DNA of 63,955 bases, filler included, from Stramenopiles sp. TOSAG23-6 (lineage: Eukaryota), in assembly GCA_900128565.1 (NCBI GenBank). It is 7 parts of 7 records of this genome, joined end to end, with 100 filler letters (N's around TTAATTAATTAA, not from the genome) between each part and the next. Parts side by side here need not be neighbours in the genome. Positions count along the whole stretch, not along the records: positions 41,747 to 52,065 come from LT636321.1; 6 more parts are not named here. The stretch is one strand, 5' to 3'. This document shows, in pieces, positions 20,796 to 62,583 of the stretch; the first letter of the stretch is position 1; the number at the start of each line of letters is the position of its first letter. Made by a program: the position numbers and the translations under genes. The notes beneath the pieces were generated by a model. That model did no database searches and was not told the DNA's origin. It saw nothing but the letters and a program-made list of their open reading frames with translations.

Positions 20796-20895
20796 NNNNN
20801 NNNNNNNNNNNNNNNNNNNNNNNNNNNNNNNNNNNNNNNTTAATTAATTAANNNNNNNNNNNNNNNNNNNNNNNNNNNNNNNNNNNNNNNNNNNN

Positions 20896-25063: not shown

Positions 25064-26015
25064 TTAATGACCACCTCCAGATCTAAGACGTTTCTGTGCC
25101 AAAGCTTTGCGTGCGTGGCGAACTGTATTGTACGAATATAGGCAAATAAATTAAATTTGAGTATATGTGTAATGGAAAATATGTATAATTATATGAAATA
25201 GGGTCATAGTTCATAAAGAGCGAGGGTGACATTTTGCACATTTGAAATTGTTTCCGTACGAAATTTTCGTACCTAACGAATTTCGAATTTGCAAATGTCA
25301 ACACTCAGCTTCGTAAATGTTCAGACAAAAAAGTTTTTTTCGTCAAATATAGGAGATGAAGCCCTATCAGTCTTTGAAAAGAGTATTTTGTATCATCACA
25401 ACAAATCAATGAAGTAAACGAGTCATTGCACTTTCCTGGTGTTAAGAGAAAAGTAAAAAAATCGAATACATAAAATTAGGTAAAAATAGAAATGNAAAAG
25501 AGTTACTTACCAGTGCGTCCAGTTGGAGCAGCTTTTGGGACAGCTTTAGTCTTTTCTTCGACAATAACTTCGATATGAGCAGGTGATGCCATGTATGCAC
25601 CAATACGACCGTGAGCACGGTATGTGCGACGGCGCATCTTTGGTGCACGGTTAACCTGTACATGGGTAAGGTAAAGACTGTCAACTTCAAGTCCTTTGGT
25701 TTCTGCGTTTGCCTCAGCGTTGCGGAGAATATCAAGGAAATAAGCAGCAGCCTTTACTGGCCATCCAGCCTGACTACCAGGAGCGTTCATGTCTTTACCC
25801 TGAGCGTTGCGACCGCAACCACCGGTGTAGCGGCGGAATGCGATAGCGCGCTTGAATTCGCGGACATCCTCGAGGTACTTGATTGCCTTAAGGAGAGGGA
25901 GGCCCTTGATGCAAGCGCCAACCTCACGGCAGTTCTTGTAGTGAACACGAAGGTTAGAACCACGAGCTTTAGCGCTCTTAGCGGTGTTAGTAGGATCAGT
26001 AGAATAACGGACCAT
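25064..26015 (-). CDS. RPL17: 60S ribosomal protein L17 (uL22), 2 exons
   Basis: MVRYS...[13 protein letters not shown]...[10 protein letters not shown]. Intron 25123-25510 (gtaagt..caatacag). Last exon [19 protein letters not shown]. Confidence 0.96.
25303..25400 (-). ncRNA. Probable intronic C/D-box snoRNA
   Basis: Inside the RPL17 intron: C box GTGATGA, guide ACTCTTTTCAAAG-A directly before a CTGA (D'), terminal CTGA. The guide is complementary to the conserved LSU rRNA sequence CUUUGAAAAGAG, recalled from memory. Confidence 0.65.
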
Positions 26016-31132: not shown

Positions 31133-31322
31133 TGTATGTTTTATTTTTTTTCAAATTGGAATTTTGTTTCGTACGAAATTTTGTACCTAACAAATTTAAG
31201 TTTTTTTTTTTGAAATATTTTTNNNNNNNNNNNNNNNNNNNNNNNNNNNNNNNNNNNNNNNNNNNNTTAATTAATTAANNNNNNNNNNNNNNNNNNNNNN
31301 NNNNNNNNNNNNNNNNNNNNNN

Positions 31323-32704
31323 TTGACCTTTCTGAGCTCTATCATGACCAATAAATGAAACATTTGCAGTAGTTGATTTTTCACTTGGTAAACCTAAATA
31401 AGCAGCAATGGCTTGCTTTGAAATATCTTTTCTTTGAGCACATCCTCCAAAACCTCCTTCTATTGGTACAAAACTATTTGAATGTTTTGATGACGTCATA
31501 GAAAAGGAAGAATATTGACCAGAACTTGATTGAACAGCTTTTTTTGGTAGTGAAGCTCCTAATGAATTAATCTGTTTTAAAATTGAATCTCTACGACTTG
31601 TACTAAATGTATACGACGGTGCTTTTTTTATTCTTGAATTATATTGAGAATTCAGTATTTTATTATGATCTACAGAATTATTTGTAAAACGAACAACCGA
31701 TTTTTGTTCTTTCATTGGACAAAACTGCTTTTGTATAGCATCTCTTTTCTCTTTTCCAAATGTTACACTAGAAATATTTCGTATTTTTGAATTATGTTTT
31801 GTATAAAATGTTTTATTGTAATCTATATTTATTGGATCATCACTCAAATCACGTGGTAAACATTTATTGTGAAGAATATTTCTTTTTTTGTTTTGTTTTT
31901 TTAATTACCATAAAAAAAAGTGACCGAAAAACAAAAAATGTAACTATAAAAAAACAAAAAATAATTTTGAAATGAAAATGTACATGCACCCAATTCATTA
32001 TACCGTTTAAGTATAGAGTCTCTATTTGTCGTATTAAATACTGTATTTGGTATATTTCGATATTTAGAATTGTGTTTGGTACGAAACACTTTTTGATAAT
32101 TTATTGAATCATNGACAAGAATATTTTTTGGTGTTTGTTTCAGCCCCGTTGCAACTTTTTTCCACATTTCTCGACTTGAAGATCCAAAATCAAAACTAGG
32201 AGGTCGACTACATTTAGAATTTGCATTGAATCCGGGTCTAGCAGCAGATGTATTTGTACTATACATACTATAATCACGTGGTAAGTATGCGTTAAGAGGA
32301 TTACTCAACTTGAGATTTTGATCTCTTGTAGAATGACCAAAATGTACTGATGGAGGCTTAGTAAAACGAGAATCAACATCTAATGATGGTGCAGATGAAG
32401 AACTATCTACATATTGACTACAGTCACGTGGTAAAGACGCATTTAATTCATTTGATTGTAAGTAAATGTCATCTCTTTTTGCTTTTCCAAATGTTACCGA
32501 TGGAATTCCACAATATTTTGAATCTGCATCTAAACTTGGTCTTGGTGCAGCTGTTACTGGACGAGACGAATGATCTTGAGATAGCTGAAGACCTGTGAAA
32601 CCTGTTGCTAACTTTTGGCACGTTTCACGACTCGCACATCCAAATTTCATTCTACTAATGTTTGATAAGGCACTTGAGTGACTAAAAGATTTTTGACACC
32701 ACAC
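31323..32704 (-). CDS. Repeat protein with PS(x)FG(x)3RD units, resembling SHIPPO/ODF3-type axonemal proteins
   Basis: Repeated PSVTFGKAKRD / PSVHFGHSTRD / PSFDFGSSSRE ... N(A/E)L(N/G)AxLPRD. Intron 31862-31983 (GT..AT) restores ACLPRD. Confidence 0.55.
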
Positions 32705-34231: not shown

Positions 34232-36602
34232 ATGGAAGAATCTACGTTGAATAGTAAAGGTGAAGAGGAAGAAGTTGTATCCCCAAAAACTTTGAACACA
34301 CCACAGTTGATTACAACCCAAGAGAAAGCTATTGAAGAAAAAGCGGTGTCGAATATTGATGTATCAAGATCGTCTTCTACGAAGGAATCAGCCGCTGAAG
34401 CTAATATACATCCTCCTGTACCCCCACCAAGAAAAGTCGAGTCTTTGTGTGTTGAAGAGAAAAGTCAACAAGAGGATCAACCAGAGCAAAAGAAACATGA
34501 TCAACCAGAGCAAAAGAAACATGATCAACCAGAGAAAAGTCAACAAGAGGATCAACCAGAGAAAAGTCAACAAGAGGATCAACCAGATAAAAGTCAACAA
34601 GAGGATCAACCAGATAAAAGTCAACAAGAGGATCAACCAGAGCAAAGTCAACAAGAGGATCAACCAGAGCAACAGCAAGATGAACAACCAAAGCAACAGC
34701 AACATGATCAACCAGAACAGCAACAGTATTATCATCCAGAGCAAAAACAACCAAGCGCCCCCCCTCGCAATGAATCTTTACGTGCATCTGGTGATTTTAC
34801 TCACAAATATCAAAAATATTACGACATATTGGACCGGGCACGTTCAGGAAATATTGAGTTAGAAGATATTTCTTCCCATCGTGTTTTGTATAGAAATGGT
34901 ACAACTTTACAAGGATTACCCATTATTGTATTTTGTCCTTCGATACTTCCAGAACATTTTTTTGAGAAAAGTGTTCAAGGTCGAGCTCATCGACGTCGAT
35001 TACTTGCTTATTTTGTTGGTTGTCTGTATGTTTTATTTTTTTTCAAATTTCAATTTTATTTTTTTTGAAAAATTTGTACCTAACAATTTTTTTTTGAAAT
35101 ATTTTCCAAAATACCTAGATCAGTTGGTATCAAATAATTATGTCGTTATTTATTTACATACACATATGAAATGGTTTAATAATAATATGTTTGGATGGTT
35201 AAAACAAGCATATACAATATTTCCACGAACCTACAAGAAGAATTTAAAAGCTTTGTGTGTAGTCCATCCTACACGAATTCTTAAACTTTTTTTTACATTT
35301 TGTCGTCCTTTCATTTCATCTAAATTTTGGAAAAAATTATATTATTTTGATAAAATTCAAGATTTACAATGGATGATGAAACCTGTTCAAGTGATATTAC
35401 CTGATTTTGTACATAATTATGATAGAGAACTTGCATTTAAAAGAACAAAACAAAATTGGAAATCAAAAAGTGGCGCCGCAATGAAGGGATTATTTACAAA
35501 ATTTTCACCGTCAAAAAACACGAAAAATACGAAAAATCATCGAAATGTAAATAATATTGTACATGGCACAAATCACAAAAACAATAATTTGTCAAGAAGA
35601 AACGCAAACTCGAATCAAAGTTTTGAACCACCTCATCCAAAGACTCAAATTTTTGGTGTATCTTTGGATTCTTTGGCCAGACGTATTCAAGAAAAACACG
35701 AAATACAAGAAAATCACGAAATACATTTTTCATCATGTTCGAATTCAAAAACAAAGAATTCTATACCACTTGTTATTAAAGCATTTATTAATTTCCTTCG
35801 AGAGAATGCACATGTAGAACATATATTTCGTGTTCCTGCAAATTCACGATTATTAATATCAACAACAAACATGATTAATATTGGTCAAAAACCTGATTTT
35901 TTAAAACCATTTTATCAAAGTATTAAAGATCATCATTTAAATAAAAGATATTTAAATGGAGATTTAAATGGAGATTTAAATGGAGATCTAAATGAGAAAA
36001 GTAAAATGGAAAATAGTGAAAGTATTAGCAGTAATGTCAGTCTTGTGGCTTCCTTATTTAAACAATTTATACGCTTATTACCCAAACCAATTATAACGTA
36101 TTCTGTATACAAAACTTTGCTTGATGAATTTGAAAAAAATGAAAAAAATCCAGATGAAAAAAATTCATTTGAAAAAAAAAATATTGAATACTTAACAAAT
36201 TTATGTACACATAATAATCCATCAATGCACTACACACACAGACAATTTTTATTTGTACTTATTTCTTTACTTAAAGATATTTCAACCTTGGAAGAATTTA
36301 ATCATATGGGGGTAAAAAATCTATCAATAGTGTTTGCACCAACATTATTTCCTACAACTCTTGGATCTGATAACAATGAAGTGTTATTAGCTACAAGAAT
36401 GGGCGTTTCTATTACAACAATATTAATTACACATTTTGATGACATTTTCCAAAATTTTGAAAATGACGATTTTGAAAATGAGTTTGATGAATTTGTTAGT
36501 GAAATTACTACTACTTCAAAAGAACATAATCCAAGACATAGTGGAGAATTTTATGATGATGATGTTGAAGATACTGATGAAAGTGAAGAAGTTGCATTAT
36601 AA
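34232..36602 (+). CDS. BCH/CRAL-TRIO + RhoGAP protein (ARHGAP1/p50RhoGAP-like), 2 exons
   Basis: YVVIYLH...YKKNLKALCVVHP (BCH); IFGVSL, HIFRVPA, VASLFKQFIRLLPKPI, NHMGVKNLSIVFAPTL (RhoGAP). Intron 35026-35116 (GT..CT). Confidence 0.9.
34455..34745 (+). repeat. Coding tandem repeat (21-27-nt units; KSQQEDQPE / QKKHDQPE)
   Basis: Direct repeats aaagtcaacaagaggatcaaccaga are visible. Confidence 0.9.
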
Positions 36603-36794: not shown

Positions 36795-37830
36795 TCAACA
36801 TGGACAACTATTATCATTTGTTTGTTGCACGTTAACCATATCAACAGTACTAGGAATGTAAATTTCATCTTGGGACTCTCTGTGTATGTGAAATATATGT
36901 AAAATAAATAATAATCAATAAGGGTTTCTTTTGTATTGAATGAATAGGAACAAATTTCTTTTTGGTTTTTTTTCAGAAAATATTTTTTCAAATAATTTAT
37001 AAAAGTACTACTTACTGTCTATTCTGTGAAAAGTATTCAAATGTTGTAGAGGGTGAGTAACAATTTTGCAAAAAAAAATAAAAAACAACATGTATAATTT
37101 GGATGAAAAACAAAATCAACAAAAACAAATTACTTTAAAGCAAGATGAGCAATACGCTGAAAAGCTTGTTCCACGTTATGATTCATTTTCGCAGATGTTT
37201 CGAAATGATCGAGAGGTTTTGGTTTCTCCCGACACCAGCTAAGTGCTTTACGCTTTTGAACACGTCGTTCAGCTTCAGGCTTGTCCACTTTGTTTCCCAA
37301 GACAATAAAAGGAAAATTATCAGGATCAGGTGGCATAGCTTGAATAAGAAATTCCTCACGCCAGCTGTCAAGTTGCTCAAATGATTTCGAATCAGTAACG
37401 TCATATGCTAAGACACATGCATCTGCACCACGATAAAATGCAACACCAAGACTTTGGAAGCGTTCCTGACCGGCAGTATCCCAAATTTGCATTGTGACAA
37501 GTTTCTCTTCAAGCATCACTTCCTTGGTCAGAAAGTCTGCACCAATGGTTGCCTTGTACTGGTTCGTAAATTTACGGTTAACATACTGGTTCATAAGAGA
37601 TGTCTTACCGACAATGGTTTATAGGAAATATATAAATAAAAAATGATTAGTTTGAGTATTAGTAAACTAGAAATAGATACTTGATACAAGATGTGTGGAA
37701 AGGTTTTTTGTTTAAAGGCAAACAAAGTTTCAAATAGAAAATATTGCCATATAAAATTTCGACATATTGTAACATACCCACTATCACCTAGAATGATGAC
37801 CTTAAGGAGAACCTTTTTTCTATGAGACAT
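36795..37830 (-). CDS. RAB7: Rab7 GTPase; 4 exons, including a 3-nt micro-exon
   Basis: [26 protein letters not shown]...[21 protein letters not shown]...ETSAK...ALKQE...SCPC*. Introns 37614-37777 (GT..AT), 37019-37133 and 36880-37015. Confidence 0.96.
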
Positions 37831-41435: not shown

Positions 41436-41746
41436 CTTCTATTGTATTTGTGATCATGCGATGATTGAATAGACAGTTTTTGAACAAGGATATTTCCTTA
41501 GTGTAAAGCGTTTTTTGACATTTATGTGAAACGGTCAATTTTGTTCTCAGCTGCGCGCGCCGGATTTCGTGCGATCGAGCAGCTCAAAATGTTCTTCTCT
41601 TTTCTTTTAGAACTCTCTTCGTTCTTTTAAAAAAATTTAAAAAAATNNNNNNNNNNNNNNNNNNNNNNNNNNNNNNNNNNNNNNNNNNNNTTAATTAATT
41701 AANNNNNNNNNNNNNNNNNNNNNNNNNNNNNNNNNNNNNNNNNNNN

Positions 41747-41777
<31 letters not shown>

Positions 41778-41844
41778 TTAGGTACAAAATTTACTATGAA
41801 ATTTTTTTTTTTTTTAAATTAAAAAAAGAAAAAAGTTAAATAGA

Positions 41845-43955
41845 TCAAAATACAATCAGTCTCTCCATAAAATCTTTTTGTTGTATTGTAAGATTGACTT
41901 GATTTCTATTTGCAAACTGCTGAATATGTTTGCTTGGTTGTAACACAGTTGTATAATTTTTATATATGGGAATTCGTAAACAAACTTCGCGACTTTCGGA
42001 GATTTTTTTTTTTTTGGTTTGACTTTCGGAGATATTTTTGTTTTTTTGGTTTTTGGTTTGATTTGAATTTGGGTTACTTATCTCAATACTCACTAGTATA
42101 CTACGTATTGACTCACTAGGGGTATTTTCCTTTGCTAATGCATTTTGTTCATTTTGTTCATTTTGTACATTTCGTGTTTTTTGTGTCTTTTGTGTTTTTT
42201 GTGTTTTTTGTGTAAAAATATTTTCATTTTCTATGTATTCAAATGTGGAATCTATAAAATTTGTAGCAAATTCTAAATTCGGGGAAACTAATCGACCATT
42301 TTTTGAGATGAATAATTGAGCTAAAACTAACAAAGTTTTTTCTTTACCATTTTGAAACGTGTCAATATCATCACTAGGGTTAGGGTTCACAAGAAATTGC
42401 ATGGGAATTGTAACTGTCGCAAGGGTGGTTACTGTACTAAAAATATATATATAAAATATGATTATTTTGTGAGCTACGAAATTGTACATTTTTTTGTATA
42501 TCAAAAAAAAAAAAAAAAAAAAAAAAAGTTGTTTAGGTACAAAATTTCGTATAAAAAAAAAATTGACACTGAAATGAATAATGAAAATCTACAAGAAGTG
42601 GATGAAGAAGAAGACACAGAATTCTTTTTGTTTCCATCATTATTTTCATCATTTTCATCATTTTCATCATTTTTTTCATTTTCATCATTATTTCCATCAT
42701 TTTCATCATTTTCATCATTTTTTTCATTTTCATCATTTTCATCATTTTTTTCATTTTCATCAATTTGAGCCCAAAACGAAACAGTTCCATCAATTGTTAC
42801 TAAAACACTACATTCCTTCCCACATCTTCTTTCTTTACCTGGTGAATGATTTATTACTTGGGGCCGATCACGAACGGATGGTACAATAAATTGTATGAAA
42901 TTTTTTCAAAAACAAAATTAATTTGTTAGGTACAAAATTTTGTATGAAAAAAAAANTNGAANTTNAAAAAAAAANTNATATTTGTTAGGTACAAAATTTC
43001 GTATGAAATATTTGTTTTTGATCTTTGATAAAAACATACATGACATTAATTTGAAGAAATTTTGTATAGTGTGTATCACTAGTGTAAACAACTTTCTTTG
43101 CAAATGTAGGAAAACCAAAGGGGAGCACATGTGTTGTGAAAAAATATTTCAAAAAAAAAATCGTTAGGTACAAAATTTCGTACGAAAAAAAAAACTCGAT
43201 TTTTTTGTAAAAAATAAAATAAAACATACACCATTTGTTATATCTGTTGTATGGATTGGGTGATGGCCGTATGGTGAATCATCTCTATCAGGTAATAAAA
43301 AATACACTGCAAAACCGTCAATAACCTTTTTTTGTTTTGTTTTTTTTTTGGTTTTCAATTCTTTATTTTTCGTATTGTCGTGAACCATCGGAAGATTAGG
43401 AAGTGTAATCATTTGTGCCATTGATGGACGTAATATACATTCATCTTTACTTAACTCGCCAGTATGTACGACTTCTCGCCCGAAACCACATTTGAACTTT
43501 GGGTGGAAAAATGTTCCAGGAAATCGTGCAGCAGAAATTGTTTCATTGATATTGCTTCGGTTGTCATCTACTGCAGTCAACACAAAAAATTGAGGTTGTT
43601 GATAAAAGTGTTCTTCATCAAACGTGGGAACCAATGACAATGCATGTTGTCTACATTCGAGCCAGTCAGATACAATAGTCCATGAAGTTATATATGCTTG
43701 ACTATCACGACGAAAGCAACCAACATAGGAGTCATTGAAGATTGATGCATCAATATTTCTTGTTCCACTCACTAAAGGCATAAATGATATCAATATTCCC
43801 ATTAATATTGAGGTGCACAGTCTGAGACGACGCAAATCATTTTTAATTTTGTAGTAGATGCATCTCATATTCAAAAAAAAATGCCTTTGATTGAATAAAG
43901 TTTTAAAGTTTGATCTTGATTCTTGATTCTTGAGATCAAGTTTTTTTTTTGACAC
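41845..43955 (-). CDS. Multi-exon protein with hydrophobic leader and an acidic E/N/D tandem tract; truncated, model uncertain
   Basis: Exons separated by family introns (~43129-43229, ~42890-43039, ~42440-42560). 9-nt repeats at 42630-42760. Confidence 0.4.
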
Positions 43956-44127
43956 GATTTATTCGCATTCAAAAATTGAAAAAGAAGAAAGCCCTAACCC
44001 TAGCTATAATACTACCCTTCTCCAGCAGCGCATGTCAATTGATGCATGATGGTATAATAATGCACAGCTAGTTGGCCTGAACCTACCTTACTACGGTTTT
44101 CATTCACACTATCATTATTATACTAGG

Positions 44128-46032
44128 ATGCAATCTACAAAACATCACATCATAGGTGTTGAACCCATGGATGAGAGTTTGCGTCATGATATGTATTCGA
44201 AAGTTGAAGAGAATAAATTACGAGAATCTCTTCTTGAACCTGTTTGCCTCGGATCTGGTCCTTTCTTATGTCGATGTAGTTCATGTTTTATTTTTGGCTT
44301 AGTAGTACCTATTTTAGTTTTTGTCTTCCTTTACTCCCGCCCAGATGAAGATTCTGAGACGGTACATGCCATTTCGCTATCCATTGTAATAGTTGGTTTA
44401 ATATTTGGTTTTGTTTTATTGTGTTCTGGAATTTTTCCAATTTTACTTAACTCTACACCTCCAAAACCTCCCCCACTTTATCCCTTATTGAGTCAACATC
44501 ATATTAGAAAACCTAAAAAGGTCTATGTTATAGTAAATCCAGCGGGTGGCAAGAAACAATCTCGAAAAATTTACAAAAGAAGTGTTGTACCAAAATTCTC
44601 TGAAGCAGGAATTGAACACAGCTTATTTGAAACTAAATATCCTGGCCATGCGAAGCAGTTATGTGCTACTTTACCTCTTTCTGGTTTTGATGCTATCATA
44701 ATCATTGGTGGTGATGGAACATTTCATGAATGTGTCAATGGCTTATTTTCGCGTAACGACGAAGAAACCCGGCCTGTCGGTTTGTTACCGGGAGGCTCTG
44801 GTAATTCCGTACTTACGGATTTTCATATACAAAATGATGTTAATGGAATTTTGGACAACATTATTTCCGGTCGCTTAGCAAATATTGATGCGATTAAAGT
44901 AACACATGGTACTTTACCACATCATACTAGATGGAGTATCAATGTTGTTGGTTATACTGCAGATCAGTGTATGTATGTTTTATTTTTTTTCAATTTTTTT
45001 GTCTAAAATTTTTTTTTTTGGTTTTCGTACGAAATTTTGTACCTAACAATTTTTTTTTTTTTTTTTTTGAAATATTTTTCCAAAATACATGTCTGGCGTA
45101 AATATTGATGTATGTTTTCACTTCACACAATCCATTGTTACCCCCTAACCCTAATAACCTTAATAACCTTAATAACCCTAATAACCCAAATAGTCTAGAT
45201 TGTACCATTTATTTTTTCCTACTAAATTTCATAAATAATATTTTTTTGACTAATTTTTTTTTCAAACCCTAACCCTAATCTTATTTTTTTACAATCTATG
45301 GATGGCGTTCACTACTTGGTACAGCTCGTTATGACGTTTGTGGTCTCTGGGGTTTACTTAAAGGACGTTCATCTGATGTTCAAGTTTGTTTTCATGATGA
45401 ATTTCATTTTTTTTTTTTTTTCATAGAATTTTTTTTTCATAGAAATTTTTTTTTTCATAGAAATTTTTTTTTTTCATAGAAATTTTTTTTTTCATAGAAA
45501 TTTTAATTTTTTTTTTTTTTTTCCACAGGTAGAAGTTGATGGTAAATTATATAAAAGAGGTGTTGGGGCAATTTTTATCAATGCAACTCAGCATTTTGGT
45601 AAAGAAATGTGGGCGTGTCCGAAAGCCTTGCTAGATGATGGAAAGATGAATATCGCTTGTATGTTGAAAAAAAAAAATTTTTTTTTCGATTTTTTTTTTT
45701 TTCGATTTTTTTTTTTTCGATTTTTTTTTTCCGAGATAATTTCATACCTAACCTAAAGAGTCAAATATTTTTGAAATATTTTTTATACTATATGTGTCAA
45801 TGGATCTCGTGCTGAAATTTTACGGATTTTTAATTTACTAAAATCTGGACGACATACCACATTAGTATCAAATGCTACAGCGTCTCATATTTTGTTGAAA
45901 CTTCCTGTTGAGACAGGTTTGTTCAATATAGATGGTGAGGTTGTCGTGTTCCACCAACACGAAATCTCACTAGAAATACATCCTGGTAAAATCGAGTTCT
46001 ATGTTCCTGATCGTAATCCTACAGCTTATTAG
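44128..46032 (+). CDS. Sphingosine-kinase / DAGK-catalytic-domain lipid kinase with two N-terminal TMs, 5 exons
   Basis: IVNPAGG, ETKYPGHA, IGGDGTFHECVNG, LPGGSGN, LGTARY, LDDGKM, FNIDGE. Includes a 19-nt exon at 45091-45109. Confidence 0.88.
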
Positions 46033-46673
46033 AAGTACACCATGAATGCTACAGCTTATTAGAAGTACACCATGAATGCTACTGTTGAGTTCCATGCTTC
46101 TGATTGGTATGTAAATCAAGTATAACTTATCAAGTCAATTGGCAGTCTAAATAACTAAATAAAAATAAATTACAAAATGAAACTTCGATTTTTGTATAAA
46201 AAAAAATGTACCGACCAACGATTTTTTTGAAGTAAAGATAATCCGAAAAATTACGAGCTACTAACAAACTAATATACTCAAAATTGTAAACCAACAACCC
46301 TAACAATTTATTAAAATTGTTTCAAATTTGTAGATACCCGGTAATCCTTTAAATTCCGCGTATCTTTTGCGGACTTTTCCCCGATCTTTGGCCACCACCA
46401 CGTAGGACTGAATACCTTCAACCAAGTCCAAAGAACGCGACTAGTCGATAAATATGTCACTATTGATCTGATAAATGAGGAGAAATATATCTTGACATAC
46501 GTCCGTGGGAGACATTGACAATAGAAAGGATTTTTTTAAGAGTTGTAGAGATACTGTTAGACAGAAAGGACAATAAGAGATTGAAAAAAAAATCATACAA
46601 AAGTTTTTTTAAAAATCTTCCATGAAAATGATTCTCTTACAAAGACTATTATAGCTCAACCACAGGTTAAATC

Positions 46674-47570
46674 ATGCATACAAGATTAACTTCACCCAAA
46701 TGGCATATAGAAAATATATTTCGTAGCACACATAGCGTAGGCGAAGAAGGTAGAGGGAAAGAAAAACCCACAGATAAAACCTTCCGTGATAAAATCTTTC
46801 ATGATAAAATCTTTCATGATAAAATCTTTCATGATAAAATCTTTCATGAAAAAGATTCTCTTCGAAACCCTTTGAAATCAATTGGCGTAGGAAATCAACA
46901 CACAGAAGTAATATATATACCCAATTCGTTACCAATCTGTGTAGACACTCCACATAATAGCTTTGACGAAGGAGCTAGGGTGAAAGAAAACAACACAGAT
47001 AAAATCTTTCATGATAAAATCTTTCATGAAAAAGTTTCTATTGTTGGAGATATAGTTAAGAATAACATTTATGAAAAGGAAATCGCGAGGTGGGATTGTT
47101 CTTCAGATAATTTTTCAAATAATTTATCAATTTTAAAGCTCACTAAAGAAGAGTTGGCAGATCTGAGCCGCACTGCCGGCGTAGATGCAAAACCGATGAC
47201 TGATGAGAATCTTACTCCTTGTACTCCTAGTGTTCCAAAAAATAATTTTGACACCCCAAAGAAATTAGCAATCGAGTATAATTGCATAATGACCACGGTA
47301 AAAGAAAACTGCCCAAGTGCTTTAAATAAAAAACGAAAATATAGAGGTAGATCGAAATGCCTTTGGTGTAAAAAAAAAGATTGCAACTGCTGCCAATGTG
47401 TCAACTGTAAATCGTGTGATCATTATCCTGAACCTTGTAAAAATTTAAGATATGGAAAGCGAAGGTTGTGTAATAAATGTAATCGGATTAAGTTTCATTC
47501 TGGGATGTGTAGAGCAAATATTCATACCCGACAAAAGAGTAGCATTGCAAAAAAAAAGAAGATACTTTGA
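46674..47570 (+). CDS. Hypothetical protein with DKIFH 15-nt repeats and a Cys-rich C-terminal putative Zn-binding region
   Basis: 298-aa ORF; CLWCKKKDCNCCQCVNCKSC...C...CNKC. Confidence 0.45.
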   Translation: MHTRLTSPKWHIENIFRSTHSVGEEGRGKEKPTDKTFRDKIFHDKIFHDKIFHDKIFHEKDSLRNPLKSIGVGNQHTEVIYIPNSLPICVDTPHNSFDEGARVKENNTDKIFHDKIFHEKVSIVGDIVKNNIYEKEIARWDCSSDNFSNNLSILKLTKEELADLSRTAGVDAKPMTDENLTPCTPSVPKNNFDTPKKLAIEYNCIMTTVKENCPSALNKKRKYRGRSKCLWCKKKDCNCCQCVNCKSCDHYPEPCKNLRYGKRRLCNKCNRIKFHSGMCRANIHTRQKSSIAKKKKIL

Positions 47571-48014
47571 AGACGTTTTGAAAATAAAGAATAAAAAATA
47601 AAGAATATTTGCTTTTTTTTTTGTACCAAGTTTTGTTTGTATATAAGCTGAATTGTGGAATTTTAAATATGGATATAGTCCTAGTATAGATACACTTTAA
47701 ATTAGTGTATATCAGCACATTTTCAAAAGTCATTTCTACTTTTTCAAATAAATGGCAAAATAAATGGATCATTTCGCATATACTTTTACTGTTCAATTTC
47801 TCTATATCAGGTTTTTAATTGTTGATTTTTATTTATGGCATGTCCTTCGGCGAATTTAGTGATACCCGGTAACAACAACAAGTGATTGAATGAGACATCA
47901 TCCGTCCCAAAAGAGACACTATTCACATCTTCAAAAGGTGATCTATACTCATACAATTTTTGTACACTTTGGCGCATTTAATTTACTAGATAACTTGTGC
48001 ATTACTTTACCATC

Positions 48015-48869
48015 ATGAACAAGTTACGAAAGAAAAACATTCTACAAGTATACTTTATTTGTATCATTTTCTATACGGGTCATCTATACACAGCGACATC
48101 CTCTTCTACATCAATCACAGTAAACGTCGCGAGCATTGCAAATTGTAAAGGTTCAAGAAACTGCCGAAGACCAAAACGATTTCGCGAAAACCCATCGGAA
48201 GCGCAACGTCCAAGCCCTAAAACATCTAAAACGTCTAAAAGACGTAAACGACATCTACCAAAGTCACAAATTGAAAAGGAAATAAACGGCGTAGTATCTC
48301 CTGCGTCACGTCTTGGTGAGTCTTTGTTACACATGATTGACAAAGGAAATTTTGAAGCTGCACGTGAACTGATCGAACAGGGAGCTAACGTAAATACTCG
48401 CACGGACCCTCGGAACCCAAGCGGGGAACAAAGTCCACTATTTTTATTTCTTCTTCGTACACAAAAAAACACAGATTACACTATTTTCAATCTTTTACTT
48501 CAAAAAGGTGCTTGTGTAAATTTTCAAAATCGATTTGGATATACACCTTTATTTGTGGCACTAAAACGATACAATGAAGTACCAAATGCAAAAAAGATGA
48601 TCTTTACAATGGTTGAAAGATACAGCGCAAATTTAGACGTTACCTGGATTGATGAAAGCGATAGAGAATACACAAGAGGTGGATATATTGGGTTTATGTG
48701 GAGTCCGCTTTATTTTGCTGTACACTATAATGATATTGAATTAGTAAAATTATTCATGGAATATCAGAATGATTTAAATTTTGCAACTGACGATGGAAGC
48801 ACACGTACTTTTATTATTATTCATTATATTGTCATTGATTTCATCACTTTTAAAAATTTTAAAAATTTT

Positions 48870-48902
<33 letters not shown>

Positions 48903-49636
48903 CATAGTAAATTTTGTACCTAATGATTATTTTTACTCCAAAACAATCAAAACAATATTTTTTTACAGTATATCCTTGCATAAAGCAATTCTAGAAGGTT
49001 TTTCTACAATAATTGCAGTATTGTTATCTAATGAATATGTCAAAGTAAATGTAACAATGATGGCTCCATTGAAAATGAAGCTTAACCCTAACCCTAACCC
49101 TAACCTTGATCCATATCAGGAAAGTAAAAGAATTCGTGTTTCTCCTTTATATATCGCAACATTTAACAATGATGTAGATACGGTCCGTAGACTACTTTTC
49201 AAGAATGCGAATGAAAATCTTGCCCATGAAGTATTTTCAATTTAAATATTTTTCATACGAAATTTTGTACCTAACAAAAAACTTTTTTTTTTTCAATTTT
49301 TTTCAATTTCAATTTTTTTCAATTTTTTTTTTTGTAGTACAATTTCATACCAAAGGCAAACAAAACAAACAAAATTTGAAATATTGTCCAACAACACATG
49401 GAACGATTCATTACACGCCACCTTGTCCTTTTGAACTAGCGACTAAAAAAAAATATACTGAAATTGTAAAACTTTTGGAAACAGTACCGGGTATCCGATA
49501 TGTACAAAAAAAAAAACTTGACCACAAAAATGACAATGACAAATTTGTTCCAACGACACATCCACTTGATAGCAGTTTTTCAACTGGTACTGCTGAGGCA
49601 TTGGATAGCATTTTTTTCGATGGTATAGATTGGTGA
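48015..49636 (+). CDS. Ankyrin-repeat protein, 3 exons
   Basis: GANVN, GYTPLF, SPLYFA. TPLHKA restored across intron 48805-48973 (GT..AT). Confidence 0.8.
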
Positions 49637-49987
49637 ACTAACTAGGGTTTTTCGGGATGTTTGGATTGTAGGGTTAGGGTTGTTGTTGTAAAAATTTTTA
49701 TTTTTTTATTTTTTTATTTTTTATACAATGTTTTTTTAAAATTGTTTTTTGTAGGCAAACATTTTTGTTTCGGTGCTTGTAAGATCATTCCTATATATAA
49801 AACTAAGCGTATTATATGTATCTATATACAAAAACAATAAAAATAATAAAAACAATAAAAACAATAAAAACAATAAAACAACCTTTTTGAATATTCACAC
49901 AAATTCGAAAACATTGAATAATAAAATATATCATTATTTTTTTTATAATTTTGACAGTGAAATTTAAAAAATTAGCTATGAAATTAT

Positions 49988-50422
49988 CTATGAAATTGTA
50001 CATGGAGAACACTTCTCTTGACGTGTTTTTTGCTGCTCTTCGAAAACACTCAAGGGGAGAAAAGAAACACAGATAGGAATGGCAACAACATTCTCATTCT
50101 TCTCCCCAGCGTTGTTTATGTCACTCATATACTTTATATTTTTAATTTTGTTTACAAGAGCTTTGTTATTTAGAAGAATTTTACCCATGCAAAGTAATCG
50201 TACCTGATCAACGACAGGTGGTGTTGGCTTCTCACTCATCTTTGGGTTATCTACATCGTTGTCCCAATGAAGACAAATTCGTTCTTTTAATTGACCAACA
50301 GTACAAGAATCTTTTAACTCCATGATCTCCCTACGATCATTTTCATATATAATGTTTACACTCAAAGGATTACTTTTGGACGTTTCTTGTGTTGTGCTTA
50401 CGTTCTTTAGTGGGTTTTCCAT
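49988..50422 (-). CDS. Membrane-anchored ubiquitin-fold (MUB/UBL3-like) protein
   Basis: TVGQLKERI..W, VRLLCMGKIL and a C-terminal CAAX (CSPCTIS). Confidence 0.7.
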   Translation of the reverse strand: MENPLKNVSTTQETSKSNPLSVNIIYENDRREIMELKDSCTVGQLKERICLHWDNDVDNPKMSEKPTPPVVDQVRLLCMGKILLNNKALVNKIKNIKYMSDINNAGEKNENVVAIPICVSFLPLSVFEEQQKTRQEKCSPCTIS

Positions 50423-50913
50423 GGATTTTTTGTACTCACAATGCAATTGTGTTTAGTAATCTCAAATCTACAATGAATTTTATGAGACTCTCATTTGCTT
50501 TCAAAATTCAATGTAGCGTAGACCATAGCCCAATAATTCTGTCAAATTTCTACTATTGTAATACTATGAGGTACGTCTATATCTACGTAGAGTACAAATG
50601 TCTACGCTCCCTCCACGTACACTTTTGAAAACTTTTGACAACTTTTGTTTTGTGTACCTTTTAGGTAAGTATGAGAGAAAAAGACGACGTAACGGATTTT
50701 TTGAGAAGCAGGTTTGTTTGCTCTACGATTTTTTTTTTTTTTGACACGTGGTGTCTGGTCAAATCGGAAAAATTGAATGGATTTTTTGTATTAGTCCAGT
50801 GGCTATAAAAAAGCTAAAAAAAGTATTACTTTTTACTTTGTCTTTTATTCCATTAAAGAAATTCACAATAACTTTGTTTATCGCGCTTTTACAGTGTTGC
50901 ATTAATGTAAATT

Positions 50914-51770
50914 ATGTCAGCTACTTCAGAGATCGTTCGAGGCATTCCTGTACACTTTCCCTTTCGCCCATATACCGTACAAAAGCTATACATGGAAAAA
51001 CTAATCGAAGCTCTTCAAACTGGCAAAAATGCTCTTCTAGAAAGTCCAACAGGTACCGGAAAGACTTTATCTTTACTATGTGCCTCGTTGGCATGGCGTC
51101 GTGCATACTTATCACTACATGAAGTATGTCGGCGTGAACGTAAATATCAATATATGCCTCGTAGTACAACTCAACTAAAGCCACACGTTCTTCGACAGAT
51201 GAGAAACGAATTATTGTCTCAGGTATTTGGTACACAATGGTATGATAATCCTAAAGTAATACAGCTATTATCTGATTTATATGGTCCAGAATGGACACCA
51301 AATAGAAACAAAGGTGGATTTGATATAAAGGGTAGTCATAAATCCATAAAAGGCATTGGAGTATATAAATATCTTTCGGACGACATTGATCGATCAGTGA
51401 GGAACCCTAACCCTAACCCTAACAATAGTAAAAGTCTTGGTGCAACTGGTCCAAATCCAGATTGGTTGCGAGGTTCTACAGGTTCAAACATGCATGAACG
51501 TACACGAAATCCACCCCAAATTATTTACGCATCTCGAGTATGTCTTTCCTTTAAAAAAAGATTGATTTCAAATTCAGTTCAAAAATTTTAAAAATTTTAA
51601 AAATTTGGATTTTTTTTCATAGTAAATTTTGTATCTAACAAAAATATAAATTTTTTTTTGAAATATTTTTCATACTAAGGACTCACAGTCAATTAACACA
51701 AGTTGTAAAGGAATTAAAAAATTCAAAATATAAACCTAGAATTGCTGTACTTGGATCACGACAACAATTA
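50914..51770 (+). CDS. XPD-family Fe-S DNA helicase (RTEL1/FANCJ-like), N-terminal part only
   Basis: [52 protein letters not shown]. Intron 51538-51680. Confidence 0.9.
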
Positions 51771-52164
51771 TGTCTGTTTTATTTATTTTTTTATTTTTTA
51801 CAAAATTTTATTTTTTTTTTTTCATACGAAATTTTGTACCTAACAATTTTTTTTTTTTTTTTTTTTCACATCAAATAATCGCCCACACATTAGATAAATT
51901 TATCATCACTTCCAAAACATTTGCTGGTTCGATTACGGATGAGCTTTGTTTTGGTATCGAAAATAAAGTCATTGGGAGTGATGGTAGAGAGCAAATAATC
52001 ACGGTTGAAATGGATGGTTTTATGTTCGTTTCATAATTAAGTTTTTTTTTTTTTTTTTTTTTTTTNNNNNNNNNNNNNNNNNNNNNNNNNNNNNNNNNNN
52101 NNNNNNNNNTTAATTAATTAANNNNNNNNNNNNNNNNNNNNNNNNNNNNNNNNNNNNNNNNNNN

Positions 52165-52764
52165 NCAAAGAAAGCTGCAAAAAACGCCGCGAATAAGGAA
52201 GCTGCTAAAGGGACAGGAAATGACCCAAAGAATGATTCAAAGAAAGCTGCAAAAAACGCCGCGAATAAGGAAACTGACAAAGGGACAGGAAACGACCCAA
52301 ATAATGATCCAAAGAAAGCTGCAAAAAACGCCGCGAATAAGGAAGCTGCTAAAGGGACAGGAAACGACCCAAAGAATGATTCAAAGAAAGCTGCAAAAAA
52401 CGATGCGGATAAGAAAGCTGCTAAAGGGACAGGAAATGGCCCAAAGAATGGAACAAAAGAAAATGGCGAAGGGGCAGGAAAAGTAGTGAAAGTTAAAGGA
52501 CCTACGGAGGCAGCAGCAAAAGTGACTGCCAAAAAGGTAGCTGAAAACAAAAAAAAAGAAGTTGTCACACACATAGCATCCGTGGGTAGTAGTAAGGCAC
52601 CAGCAGAAAAAAATGATATTTTTATCATAACTGGTGATAATGCTTCTACCAGGAGTAAACCCACCACATTGAACCCGAATAATGACACAATGTCATTGAA
52701 CCCAAATTATGCTACATCGCCACCACTTATTCATTTAGGTGTTCCTGGTACCGGTACACCCTAA
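52165..52764 (+). CDS. Fragment of a Lys/Ala/Asn-rich protein with ~60-nt tandem repeats
   Basis: Four to five units KKAAKNAANKEAAKGTGNDPKNDS; 5' end lies in the gap. Confidence 0.55.
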   Translation, partial: XKKAAKNAANKEAAKGTGNDPKNDSKKAAKNAANKETDKGTGNDPNNDPKKAAKNAANKEAAKGTGNDPKNDSKKAAKNDADKKAAKGTGNGPKNGTKENGEGAGKVVKVKGPTEAAAKVTAKKVAENKKKEVVTHIASVGSSKAPAEKNDIFIITGDNASTRSKPTTLNPNNDTMSLNPNYATSPPLIHLGVPGTGTP

Positions 52765-53075: not shown

Positions 53076-54691
53076 CTATCCATCATTTGAACTATACACT
53101 GGTTGTTTTGGTAATCTATAGTCTTCTCTCTTTATAGCACGATCAACATGAACAGTTTGTGAAAAAGGTTGGTAAGATACTTGAAAAGGTCGACCAAGGG
53201 AATCGGCGAAGCGTCTCATTTGTGTTTTAGCATCACTCAAAGTGTCTGCTACAAAATATGTTGGTTGGTATGTTGTAATAGGATATTCTTGCATTCCAGC
53301 AACATCTGGATCCCAAGGTAAATATGTAGGAAAGTTATCTTCACCTCCAGCTGGACGCAACGCCGAGCAGGCATATTCCAATTCACCAAATGAGGATAAT
53401 AAACCTGCTCCATACGCTTTCAATGCCCCATATATTGTGAAAAAATATTTTTTTTTTTTCGTAAAAAAACAGTTTGTCAGGTACAAAACTTGGTACAAAA
53501 CAAATAAATTCGATTTTTCAATTTTGAAAATGTACATCTTGACGACATAAACCAAATTCAACAGAAAACCAGTAGCACGTTGCTAAACGTTTAATATCAG
53601 CATCACTAGCTCCCAAAGATGCAAGTCCAATTTCATGAGAAAAATCAGCAAAATCAGGATCTGCAAACATTGGAGCATGCCCAAGTAACTCATGACAAAT
53701 ATCAGGCTCTGGCGTATATAAAGGAGTTGAATGGTGCCTAATATATTGGGTAGAGAAGAAAACACGAAATGCAAGACCATTGAGAAAGTCGCGTGCTGAT
53801 AGTAATCCACCAACGGGTCTCAATTGAAATCCTGTACAGTCACGTAGAAAATCACTGTTTTGTGAAAATTTAAAACAATATATATTTTTCCGTTAGGTAC
53901 AAAATTTCGTATGAAAAAAAATCGAAATACTTTTTGTTGATGAAAACGGACCTGATATCTTGTACTTGAGGAATGTTATCTGAAGCATATCCACAATTTT
54001 TTTCCATTAATGGAAGGATGTAGTTAAACTGTTTGCATGCATAATGAGGGAGAAGTTTTCCTAATCTATCATAAACAACACCCCATGTTGCAATTTCATC
54101 TTCATTATAATCTACATAAGGTATTCTACCACCTTCACGAAAACTAAAGCCAGTAGAGTAATTCACAATTTCTTTTCGACGTTGACGATATTTTTCATCT
54201 GTGAAACCAGGATGGTCTGCTTCAAGATCAACACCAGCATCAAGCGTTTCATTGGCAAATTGATCAAGATCTTCCAGTTTTCGTGGGAACCATGGTACAA
54301 GTTGAGGTTCTTCTTCTTCTATTTTGGGACAGACTCTTTTCAAGTCATTTAGCAACTGCTCTGCACGGGAAGGTTCCTGAACTCTAAAGTCTACGTGAAA
54401 GTTGTAAGATGCAGAGTTTGCGATCTTTGTAGGTCGCGACTCTATTCGAGTCATTGTGATTGAATTAGAACGAAAAATTTTTAATACCTCTTCCAATGCA
54501 CCAGGCTTGTTCGCAGAAGTTTGGAAAACAATACTTCTCTTTGAACTTTCGTTGGGTTTAGAGAATCTTTGTTGTGCTGAACTTCCTCCACGTGCAGAGC
54601 TGCCAGACTTTTTCGTATGGCCGCTACATAGGGAACGCGTAAAAGTATTGTACAATCGCATTGCACGGAATCGTTTAAAGATCATCGACAT
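53076..54691 (-). CDS. PAH: Phenylalanine 4-hydroxylase (ACT + biopterin-dependent aromatic amino-acid hydroxylase), 3 exons
   Basis: [65 protein letters not shown]. Introns 53855-53951 (GT..AG) and 53430-53535 (GT..AT). Confidence 0.95.
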
Positions 54692-55008: not shown

Positions 55009-57129
55009 ATGAGACTAAGTGGCTTACTTCAGCAACGCATTCCTAGAAAAACGTCCGGTAGAAAGTCTCCCGAATTTATCGAGGGACGCAAAACAGCTTT
55101 TAAAGATGTATTTGTAGGTTTTTTGGCAATCCTTTGCACTTGGTCAGCGGCTTCTTTGATTGCACTTGATTTTGCTACGCTTTTGCCTACCCAACTTTCT
55201 CCATTCTTACTTCTTGTGCAAGCGCCACTCGATGCTGCTTCATACTTATCACTGACTTGTGCCGCACCAGTTGCACACATATTAGGGGTACTACTCATAA
55301 AGGAGTACAAGTTTTATAATCCGCTCGGAGGCGGACAAACGTTTGTATACATGCAGGCTGCAGGTTGGAGTGCTTATGGAATTGGTTTATTTTTTGTAGG
55401 GGTTGATAGTATACGGCAGTTTTGTAAGTTTTCAAGTCTGTGTCAATCAGACTTGTGCATTACTTGTACCGTATATTCTATATTCTACATTCAATTGTTA
55501 CACTTCTGTATGACGTCGCTATGTATTTATTTCTTTTATAATTGAAACATTTACACATTATATCCAGGATTCATCATATTCCTTGCTCTCGTTTTAGCTA
55601 CTGGAAATACGCTAATCATTTGGAGTTTATATATGATTCAACCAATCACTTCTAATGAAGGACAAGTTCAAGAAAAAAAACAGCGGTCCCGGGAAAGGTT
55701 CCGTTCAAGGTCTCTTTCTCCACCGCCTCTTTCATTTTTACTGCGAGAAACTAAATCTAAACTAGAAATGAATGTCCCAAAAAAATATGAACATTTAAAA
55801 GTGGAGCAAAAACGAAAGGCTGCGGAGAGAAAATTGGTTTTTGATTGTACAATAATGTATGTTTTATTTTTTTCAATTTTGAGTTTTTTTTCATACTGAA
55901 TTTTGTACCTAATGTTTTTTTTTGAAATATTTTCCAAAATACAGGATATTTGGTATGTGCGGAATCGTTGGAGCTATTTTGAAATCCCATCCTCATATAG
56001 AGTTACGTAGTGAAAGGGATTATATATTCGGTGATGGTGATCAAATGGAACTTCCATTTTGTGAAAAACCTTATGCATGGAGTGGAACGATAGCACAGCT
56101 ACCATCTTTTGTATTACATTTACCATATGTACCAGTGATGATTCTATTATATAAATTATTTGCGTGGAACTTTTTGAACAAAAACAAAAAGGACTCCAAA
56201 AACACGAAACAAACGAAACATACCAAAAACCCTAACGCAAACATTGTTTCTTGTAATTATTTGATACCGTTTAATTTGAATGGAGACCAACTTGAGTTTG
56301 TATTTGGTTTGATATGCTTTCAGATATGGACCTCTATTGGTCACATTGTTGCCAATCCTAGATCACTTCATGCACGTTTTCATGATGAATTTTAGATTGT
56401 TTTTTTCGTACCCAATTTTGTATCTAACGAGTTTTTTTTACTAAAAACAAATATTTTTTCACAGTACATATACAAGAATCGTCAATATGTATCAGTTTGT
56501 TCATTCTTCGGGCTTTTATGAATTCGTTATCTTCATTACCTAGTGATAAAATAAGTAAGAAAATTATGGTGAAAATATTAGTATATATGTTAAGCAGCTA
56601 TAATTTATTTGGCCTTATGCCAACGATAATATTTCCAGGTATTGTACGTTTTCAACATTGAATTTGAATTTTTTTTTTCCTAGAGATTTTCGTACCTAAT
56701 GAATTCATTTCAAATTCGACATAAGTTTTCACAATACGTGTCATGGTATCTGCTCTATTTTTTATGGTTGGTTCCGATAATTGTAATAACTGTCGGACTG
56801 ATATCACAATGAAAAAAACGTATCAAGAAAATAATGATAGAAACAAAATGAAAAGTGGTACTATTATTACACCGAAATTCTTCCGCGTAGGTGCTTTGAT
56901 GCCTGAGCTAACTAATTTAGGAAAAGTCGCAATATTAGGGCTTCTTTCTTTTTCAATTGTAATATTAGTACTTGAAGTCGAATTGTGTGAGACTTTATTA
57001 GAAATAGCTCCAAATATATCTTGGCATGCACCTTTTGATTTTGTATTTTGGCAAATATTTTGGGTTCAAGTTTTAATTATTTGTTTGTCGAAACCAGGAA
57101 GTGTGTGGCGAAAAAAAATAAAAAGATAA
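55009..57129 (+). CDS. Multi-pass membrane protein, multi-exon; C-terminal half loosely ceramidase/CREST-like
   Basis: Many TM segments; FCE, S.IGH and WH motifs. Introns ending AG, AG, AT (GC start) and GT. Confidence 0.45.
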
Positions 57130-61691: not shown

Positions 61692-62583
61692 CCGTCTTGC
61701 TCTTGGACATACTGGTGGTGTTTTTGGTGCAATTGTAACTCTATTATCCAGAAATGTTATTCGGTGTCGTTTTATTCATTGGTTGTTTACGTAAAATTTG
61801 TAACTTTTTATGATAAAACAATCTGAAAAATATGAAATTTTCTTTTTTCTTAATCCTTTGTGGATGTGTTTCTTCTTTTCGTAGAAGTTTTTTCATACTT
61901 GCTCAACCTAATGATGCATGTTTGTCTATATTGAGTCCCCTCCTTTTGACAAAACTTGTTTTTGTCAAATCTTGCTGTACACTATGCCTGAAGATTTTAT
62001 GTAAAACTTCCTTTCATTTTTTGTGTGATTTCATTTAGTTATACTTATTTTCGTTTAAAGAAATAATACTTATTCAGGATTTTTCTTAATATAGATCTTT
62101 TACTTCACTGAACAAAAACTGTTAAATCAATAAAAGGAACCTACATCTCCCGGTACAATAAACTAAAAATATGTTTTAAGTTTTTTATCGTGTTTCTTCT
62201 GGAGCTCCACTATACCCATGCGTCAAACAAATCGACGTGACGTTTTCGTCGTTTTCGTGTTGTGCCACGCTTTTGACAGATTTTGATGAAATTTCATAGC
62301 AAATTTTGTATGTAATTTCATTTTTTGTTTTTTTTCATAAGAAAATTTGTAGGTAAAAATATTTCAAATTATTTTTGTCTTCAAATTAAATAAAAATGTT
62401 CCATTAGGGTTAATTTTAAGACAAAAATAATTTGAAATATTTTTACCTACAAATTTTCTTATGAAAAAAAAATAAAAAATGAANNNNNNNNNNNNNNNNN
62501 NNNNNNNNNNNNNNNNNNNNNNNNNNNTTAATTAATTAANNNNNNNNNNNNNNNNNNNNNNNNNNNNNNNNNNNNNNNNNNNN

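Follow-up and report, generated by a model that had tools for sequence, protein, structure and literature searches.

A family of stereotyped introns with GT donors and mostly AT ends in a stramenopile-type protist, whose 3' splice sites may be defined by a conserved box

The stretch of DNA analysed here, called the window in the following, is 63,955 nucleotides (nt) long and consists of seven parts of the Stramenopiles sp. TOSAG23-6 assembly (GCA_900128565.1) joined end to end. It is AT-rich, with a GC content of about 25-41%, and many of its genes are interrupted by introns that closely resemble one another. One of these, at 48805-48973, lies in an ankyrin-repeat gene on the part taken from LT636321.1 (positions 41,747 to 52,065), where an open frame extends over 47994-48923. 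Other copies interrupt genes for TTLL-like, PAH, RTEL1-like, RhoGAP, DAG-kinase-like and WD40 proteins. Our account of these introns is built throughout on reading frames and protein homology. The features around the ankyrin-gene intron are as follows.

48204-48804 (plus strand): upstream exon of the ankyrin-repeat gene (at least that part of it), with the internal repeats YTPLFVA and WSPLYFA, ending GGA AGC ACA C; the intron is in phase 1
48805-48973 (plus strand): intron of 169 nt, GT..AT; its end is the only one that gives GSTPLHKA without a stop
48805-48815 (plus strand): 5' splice motif GTACTTTTATT, which varies from the family's GTAYRTTTT
48900-48924 (plus strand): central box TTTCATAGTAAATTTTGTACCTAAT, a putative branch-site region
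48953-48973 (plus strand): 3' box CAATATTTTTTTACAGTATAT, matching the family 3' consensus in a gap-free alignment; its last base is also that of the intron
48967-48968 (plus strand): bypassed AG, 5 nt before the end, at 3' box positions -6/-5; its use leads to a stop at the ninth codon
48974-49230 (plus strand): downstream exon, starting CC TTG CAT AAA GCA
49231-49342 (plus strand): next intron of the ankyrin gene, GT..AA; the AG at 49336-49337 is bypassed

The intron reads GT...ACAGTATAT|CC, its end running ...TTTACAGTATAT and then CCTTGCAT. It contains a long T run, and CCTTGCATAAAGCA stands directly after the 3' box. Coordinates and bases agree with those given in a preliminary description of this DNA, which had proposed that nearby AG dinucleotides are skipped in favour of an end defined by its position. 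With the GT donor held, use of the AG at 48967-48968 would bring a stop at the ninth codon past the junction, just as claimed there, while the AT end at 48973 gives ...DDGSTPLHKAILEG... and, read with the same donor, ...DDGSTPLHKAILEGFSTIIAVLL..., both stop-free, and restores the ankyrin motif TPLHKA. The uninterrupted exons of the same gene contain the repeats YTPLFVA, WSPLYFA and VSPLYIA. Because these three sister repeats match GSTPLHKA, the AT end is the reading that fits the protein. In an alignment of family members (A1), the bypassed AG corresponds to an A-to-G change at position -6 of the 3' motif. A search with the ankyrin exon among proteins of near length returned zero matches.

The intron is one member of a family. 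Taken as a 15-mer, the central box occurs 86 times in the window at up to 3 mismatches, compared with 10.9 expected, a number that 0 of 100 shuffles reached; 28 of the 86 copies are exact. Curation used a 12-mer of the box, which has 44 matches at up to 1 mismatch on the two strands. Eleven of these were dropped, five being cut by N runs or the window edge, four lacking a recognisable intron on the strand concerned and two (boxes at 42544 and 63498) having ends that could not be settled. Two further matches share one intron, which leaves 32 introns; together with the box-less Rab7 intron (37777..37614) and another at 31983..31862, the curated set comprises 34, of which 32 are box-bearing. All logo and end statistics below refer to the 31 introns that keep frame. 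The 32 box-bearing copies with resolved ends all lie in the sense of the flanking open frames, and family introns are the majority intron class in the window.

Alignment A1, which comprises 16 introns, shows three conserved blocks with variable spacers between them. At least 34 introns are stereotyped in this manner, with (A-T|)GTAYRTTTT at the 5' end, a central box ending TTTTGTACCTAAC, a T run and the 3' box CAMAATACAT|. In the 5' block, exon A-2 is found in 23 and exon T-1 in 25 of the 31 introns, followed by G1 (30), T2 (29) and A3 (29) and then by Y4, R5 and T6-T9. Position 5 is G in 21 introns, A in 6 and T in 4, and T6 is invariant (31/31). The central block has the consensus TTTTTCGTACGAAATTTTGTACCTAAC. 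Its ending TTTTGTACCTAAC, similar to a CTAAC branch consensus, is present in 32 of the 34 curated introns. The 3' block begins with the T run and continues with C-10 (21), A-9 (28), M-8, A-7 (30), A-6 (24), T-5 (26), A-4 (27), C-3 (22), A-2 (28) and T-1 (24, the others being G in 5 and A in 2). The first base after the cut is G in 16 of 31.

AG is the exception at the ends of family members. Of the 31 introns, 22 end in AT, 4 in AG, 2 in AA, and one each in CT, GG and GT. Ends were placed by motif match alone, and the three registers were then compared for the longest downstream frame, which was obtained with the motif-defined register in 29 of the 34 curated introns. Two registers are ambiguous, namely those at 40541 (28 versus 36 codons, the 28 ending at an apparent gene stop) and 43229 (47 versus 50 codons). 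Since such a frame test is blind to both ends being slid by the same number of bases, we examined junctions in conserved proteins, which are listed here together with further introns that bear on the choice of the 3' end.

53430-53535 (minus strand): PAH intron 2, GT..AT, ending CACAATATAT; junction fixed by close homologues
53855-53951 (minus strand): PAH intron 1, a family member with GT..AG that serves as internal control; junction QDI-S-DFL
37614-37777 (minus strand): Rab7 intron without central box, GT..AT, ending AAACCAT; junction inside GDSG|VGKT
51538-51680 (plus strand): intron of the RTEL1-like helicase gene, GT..GG; junction ASR|THSQ; AG at 51678-51679, one base before the end
35026-35116 (plus strand): intron of a CRAL-TRIO/RhoGAP gene, GT..CT; AG at 35117-35118 after the end; the last two bases, CT, are also the exon's last two
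5413-5510 (plus strand): intron, GT..AA; AG at 5511-5512 after the end
56372-56469 (plus strand): intron, GC..AT; the AG at 56463-56464 is bypassed

At PAH junction 2, the 13 residues of the window protein align without any indel with CRQDGGMKAYGAG from homologue P0008 and CKQDGAMKAYGAG from homologue P0009, which are 97% and 95% identical in the PAH exon, respectively. The only splits of the DNA that would give this junction are AT..AT, TG..TA, GT..AT and TA..TG, with no AG or AC near. Joined from its three exons, PAH is open over 470 amino acids, and its identity to P0008 is 75% across 456 alignment columns. Similarly, the Rab7 junction GDSG|VGKT, within what we take to be the conserved P-loop GDSGVGKT, needs GT..AT or TA..TT. 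In PAH and Rab7, the non-AG ends are fixed by close homologues and by a conserved junction, respectively. The RTEL1-like junction ASR|THSQ needs either GT..GG or AG..AG slid by one base at both sites, which yields the same protein. In an exonuclease gene, the two exons flanking the intron at 59386 match different chains among solved structures.

What could set the 3' end was addressed with a census of AGs in the 32 box-bearing introns, in which the first AG was counted from at least 10 nt past CTAA. The end coincides with the first AG in 4 introns, an earlier AG is bypassed in 10, and the stretch is free of AG in the remaining 18. A first-AG rule would therefore be correct in 4 of 32, and together with the homologue-fixed ends of PAH and Rab7 this bears out the earlier view that the end is not found by scanning to the first AG. 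An AG stands 5 nt before the end in three introns (48967, 49336 and 56463), and use of any of them would lead to an early stop. The observation of bypassed AGs is confirmed and is much more general than the preliminary description had seen. That description had offered a ruler or recognition of a box as the mechanism, to be judged by the distance of the acceptor from the TTTTCA box and from CTAAC. This distance, measured from the end of CTAA, varies between 32 and 68 nt with a median of 40.5 (32 introns), a spread that argues against a ruler from the branch-like box or from its TTTTCA part. Recognition of a box holds up in another form, as the introns end at the last base of a conserved 3' block of their own and not at a place given by the TTTTCA/CTAAC box, so that the earlier interpretation is partly supported overall.

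Three more AGs had been cited as breaking the frame. Their positions are correct: 51678-51679 precedes the in-frame end by one base, and the other two, 35117-35118 and 5511-5512, directly follow theirs. With the GT donor held, all three lead to stops 7 to 18 codons past the junction; the frame break does not survive if the donor is allowed to shift, as discussed below.

The varying last dinucleotide has a counterpart in the upstream exon. In 19 of 31 introns the final dinucleotide repeats the one that closes the exon before the donor (p=0.006, shuffling), and three of these matches are not AT (p=0.002), namely CT/CT at 35026, AA/AA at 49231 and AG/AG at 53951. Neither the three control comparisons nor a lengthening of the repeat to 3 nt reached significance. 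The 2-nt repeat is the pattern expected of a target-site duplication of 2 base pairs (bp) and, as the test was made post hoc, is suggestive of one. If the element were spliced out together with one copy of such a duplication, this would explain why the last dinucleotide varies at a constant position. The complementarity of the two intron ends we take as a short terminal inverted repeat, not as a proven requirement.

The two PAH introns offer a view on the age of the insertions. Among 80 related PAH loci, 78 show a single match that crosses junction 1 without interruption. Both sides of junction 2 are covered in 78 loci, and such a match spans it in 77 of these. Locus L009 carries an unrelated intron with GT..AG ends next to junction 2, and the central box is absent from all 80. 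This may point to a recent gain of both introns, for which it is weak evidence because many of the compared loci may be transcripts.

The explanation that we favour, with a probability of roughly 0.6, is a single lineage-specific family of spliceosomal introns that is transposon-like ('introner'), has its 3' site defined by a box and is relaxed in its last dinucleotide. Each copy would bring the donor GTAYRTTTT at its extreme 5' end, usually after exon A-T, and a central box ending TTTTGTACCTAAC as the likely branch site, followed by the T run, CAMAATAC, two further bases and then the cut. The cut would be placed by recognition of the 3' box, neither by scanning to the first AG nor by distance from the branch box, with A-2 nearly fixed and the last base relaxed, preferring T, then G, then A. 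Removal of the element and of one copy of the 2-bp target-site duplication would restore the original frame. If the cut is set by the 3' box and the duplication copy, an AG that arises in or beside the box would consequently be ignored. A stricter version holds that the cut is fixed two bases past CAMAATAC whatever these are, and that a mobile element is excised with exactly one copy of its 2-bp duplication; this we put forward tentatively, as a possibility that is somewhat unlikely in this exact form.

Several points weigh against the favoured explanation. That the segments are spliced, how efficiently and at exactly which bases is all read from DNA and predicted protein, and the factor that would read the 3' box is hypothetical. 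The assignment of the host draws on one gene tree and on the best named matches of one further gene. The duplication signal comes from 31 introns and three rare matches and was tested after the pattern had been noticed, and the terminal inverted repeat in the consensus measures about 6 nt (ATGTAT / ATACAT), with no longer repeat seen. AG is about two-fold depleted between box and end, with 11 observed against 21.8 expected from base composition, and may therefore not be wholly neutral. Three introns, 21213-21323 (minus strand), 21007-21119 (minus strand) and 51772-51876 (plus strand), are out of frame at the motif-defined pair of sites. By hand translation, 21323, 21119 and 51772 fit a donor four bases further in, before +5, together with the usual 3' end; at 51772 this +5 donor keeps a Cys (GSRQQLC) common to all 25 homologue matches shown, and a cut at G1 leads to its loss or to a stop. 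Moving the donor by 1 or 2 bases and using an AG keeps the frame in 51538-51680, 35026-35116 and 5413-5510, the frame-keeping shifted pairs being AG..AG, TG..AG, AT..AG and AC..AG. In 48805-48973, finally, an AG at 48984-48985, 12 nt downstream of the end, is in frame (GT..AG) but deletes LHKA.

The last two points belong to an explanation by canonical 3' ends, according to which the true acceptors are nearby AGs combined with shifted donors, or in-frame AGs downstream, and the motif-defined ends are an artefact of the frame. The frame indeed stays open with AG..AG in the RTEL1-like gene (51537/51679, both sites at -1), with TG..AG or AT..AG in the intron at 35026, with TG..AG or AC..AG in that at 5413, and with GT..AG up to 48985 in the ankyrin gene. 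Moreover, an in-frame AG is found at most 40 nt downstream of the end in 9 of 32 introns, 7 of them with non-AG ends, a count that is approximate since it depends on a hand-set offset. Against this, no AG in PAH intron 2 or in the Rab7 intron could produce the conserved junction, the next AG in Rab7 leading to a stop by hand translation. The AG-free introns of the census (18/32) and the 28 of 32 that end in something other than AG fit such acceptors poorly, and shifted donors would forfeit a motif in which G1 is present in 30 and T2 in 29 of 31. The end at 48985, for its part, removes the LHKA that the three sister ankyrin repeats keep. Overall, we consider canonical 3' ends improbable.

The cuts could also be defined as in Euglena or Amoebophrya, by a helix of ATGTAT with ATACAT and regardless of the terminal dinucleotides. 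In the consensus, the two ends complement each other at about 6 positions, and exon -2 to intron +3 can pair with intron -1 to -5 in 21 to 28 of the 31 introns, depending on the position. Of eight introns that we folded, five have a minimum-energy structure closed by ATGTAT/ATACAT and a sixth (35026) is closed by another terminal helix. Direct repeats of short length span the two boundaries, a feature that the introners of Amoebophrya share according to the accessible part of the source (PMC7789003). The paired positions show no covariation, however, and pairing equals the shuffle expectation at every one of them. Fold z-scores are weak (-2.55, -2.16, -1.36, -1.00, -0.31, -0.29, -0.25 and +1.13 for the eight introns), the folded PAH intron and the intron at 56372 have no end-to-end helix and still end at the box, and the donor is a regular GT in 29 of 31. 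A cut dictated by the helix is therefore not what we expect, and we rate it as unlikely.

Donors of U12-type introns follow the consensus RTATCCTT. A transformed minor (U12-type) spliceosome that tolerates varied 3' terminal bases might be considered, as GTAYRTTTT and ACCTAAC bear a loose resemblance to the generally known U12-type donor and branch consensus. Extended conserved donor and branch motifs and a tolerance of non-AG 3' ends are, likewise by general knowledge, features of U12-type introns, all copies here are highly alike as minor introns are, and Physarum is reported, as far as the source was accessible, to have a large transformed minor-intron system. The donor core is nevertheless different, with R-T at positions 5-6 and not C-C, and the distance from the box to the intron end is 32-68 nt as opposed to the roughly 10-26 nt usually given for the U12 branch site. 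The family is also the majority and not the minority class, and a scan of the window against Rfam gave 0 matches, hence no genes for small nuclear RNAs (snRNAs) there. The chances of this alternative appear small to us.

A reading without any removal from RNA, in which the segments reflect excision at the DNA level, dead genes or an assembly artefact, is very improbable: direct repeats at both boundaries, the nature of the window as a stitched scaffold with N linkers and a case for splicing built on DNA and predicted protein would leave room for it, but more than 30 varied genes (IFT140, Rab7, PAH, a kinesin-like open reading frame and others) have long open frames across the segments, GTAYGT and CTAAC are well known as classical spliceosomal signals, and the sense orientation of all 32 resolved box-bearing copies stands against a single antisense partial copy in a ribosomal-protein intron.

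Non-conventional introns of Euglena have no GT donor and depend on the pairing of intron ends. Euglena is comparable in having introns without GT-AG borders, there genome-wide according to the accessible text (PMC12501133, PMC11170887), and is unlike the present case in that GT is kept here and the pairing of the ends shows no covariation and folds weakly. By the standards of U2-type introns, the family has the GT donor and, judged by its bases, a CTAAC-like box, while the 3' AG is found in 4 of 31. The introns resemble those of Fritillaria and Amoebophrya yet differ from both. In the tunicates Fritillaria pellucida and F. borealis, AT is the commonest 3' intron end, at 44% and 34%, respectively, and according to the part of the report at hand a Y-A-Y triplet ends introns and often also precedes the donor, with divergent U2AF paralogues proposed to read the non-AG ends (PMC13326754). 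Likewise, 21 of the 31 introns here finish with CAT or TAT, and in 14 of 31 the exon before the donor closes with Y-A-Y. Both systems retain a U-rich tract, and introner transposons are proposed as the source of the introns in both, as far as the Fritillaria text goes (PMC13326754). They differ in the host, which is not a tunicate by the PAH tree, in the donor, which is GT in 29 of 31 here and mostly AG in F. borealis, and in the conservation of a 10-base 3' box and a 25-base central box, neither of which has a counterpart described for Fritillaria in that portion (PMC13326754).

Amoebophrya, again as portrayed in the accessible portion of the source, is likewise a marine protist whose introns form repeated families and are in the majority non-GT-AG; their ends bear inverted repeats, and direct repeats a few bases long overlap the exon/intron borders (PMC7789003). 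Its introns have no dominant terminal dinucleotide there, and the cuts vary relative to a hairpin of 8-20 nt (PMC7789003), whereas the introns of the window have a GT donor, mostly an AT end and a short end helix without covariation. The GC content is about 33% here as against 54-58% for Amoebophrya, the latter being coding-sequence values (PMC7789003, same portion). Introners of Micromonas, Aureococcus and other aquatic organisms are similar to the present family in that they are short, non-autonomous elements that bring their own splice signals, occur as many near-identical copies in unrelated genes and, through a target-site duplication, allow excision to restore the frame; as far as their accessible descriptions show, they are canonical GT-AG introns, unlike those found here (PMC11282704, PMC12130899). 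Methods of introner surveys discard families with unfamiliar splice sites unless these are supported by RNA, according to the accessible part of one such survey (PMC12130899), so that a GT-AT family would probably be missed. Our literature search, in which subscription journals were thinly covered, found no GT-AT intron system described in stramenopiles or other protists.

Regarding the host, PAH of the window falls into a clade with 100/99 support whose named members are only oomycetes and Cafeteria, with Amoebozoa, opisthokonts and a red alga outside of it. Diatoms are among the best named matches of the RTEL1-like exon, and a comparison of this exon with longer proteins gave no close relative, the top bit score being 85. 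The IFT140 homologue matches four solved IFT140 chains, presumably human, Chlamydomonas and Tetrahymena proteins, about equally well (830, 830, 781 and 718 bits). Taken together, we infer that the host is a stramenopile-type protist and probably marine. A tunicate host, considered in view of the Fritillaria literature, is ruled out by the PAH tree. All relatives recovered in a metagenome scan with the PAH exon are at most 91% identical; they belong to other species and lack the central box. Three seawater metatranscriptome runs contain 6-9% of the sampled words of 43000-52060, a share too small to speak for habitat or expression.

Some further introns of the window show deviations from the family pattern. 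Donors other than GT stand at the motif-defined site, with the frame kept, in 1262-1378 (minus strand; GG) and 56372-56469 (plus strand; GC), and 5262-5384 (plus strand) keeps the frame with the donor GTTTG, which has T at +3. In 42886-43039 (minus strand) the central box occurs twice in tandem (42937 and 42996) and the motif-defined TTAT end is in frame. The segment at 42494-42592 (minus strand) has the donor GTAGATTTTCA and the box, and beyond them a long stretch of T and what may be a distant acceptor region (…TATTTTTAG); if the donor is kept, the AG of that region also leads to a stop by hand translation. A longer intron at 25129-25507 (minus strand), starting GTAAGT and ending CAATACAG (ends read by eye), lies in a ribosomal-protein gene, presumably uL22/L17-like, which looks like an abundantly expressed gene and has GC-richer codons. 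The antisense partial copy of the central box mentioned above is located inside this intron at 25252-25276. The load of family introns is very uneven among the genes of the window: the IFT140 homologue at 16035-20795 (minus strand) is a single, intron-free open frame of 1587 codons, and its neighbours carry several family introns.

Telomere-like CCCTAA repeats of 2-3 units were found 13 times at up to 1 mismatch, compared with 0.08 expected, at 49086-49103, 51405-51422, 45143-45154, 45267-45278, 477-488 and six more sites. Two of them are located in coding exons, of the ankyrin and RTEL1-like genes, and read NPNPNPN. The exact copies at 45143 and 45267 lie within about 160 nt downstream of a donor at 45110, in an apparent intron. 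The six joins between the parts of the window (10350-10449, 20796-20895, 31223-31322, 41647-41746, 52066-52165 and 62484-62583) each consist of 44 N, TTAATTAATTAA and another 44 N, and 6108-6307 is a plain run of 200 N. Long T or A runs in family introns are the site of several joins, an indication that the assembly breaks at such introns.

The terminal AG is among the most conserved signals of eukaryotic gene expression, and structures of the spliceosome account for it by the last two intron bases contacting the first intron base and the branch adenosine. To our knowledge, few genomes escape the AG rule at large scale, namely those of Fritillaria, euglenids, diplonemids and Amoebophrya. If the stricter version with a fixed cut is true, insertions into genes would be silent and GT-AT (or GT-AN) would be the majority intron type of this organism. 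It would then have a co-evolved system of transposon and spliceosome with a sequence-addressed, AG-independent second step, a case outside animals and independent of Fritillaria. A protist in which about seven in ten introns end in AT behind a textbook GT donor and branch box would provide a clean natural experiment on the second catalytic step, and it bears on how transposon families may seed introns without harm to genes. In practice, standard gene finders and introner surveys built on AG or AC ends will get the annotation of most genes in such a genome wrong.

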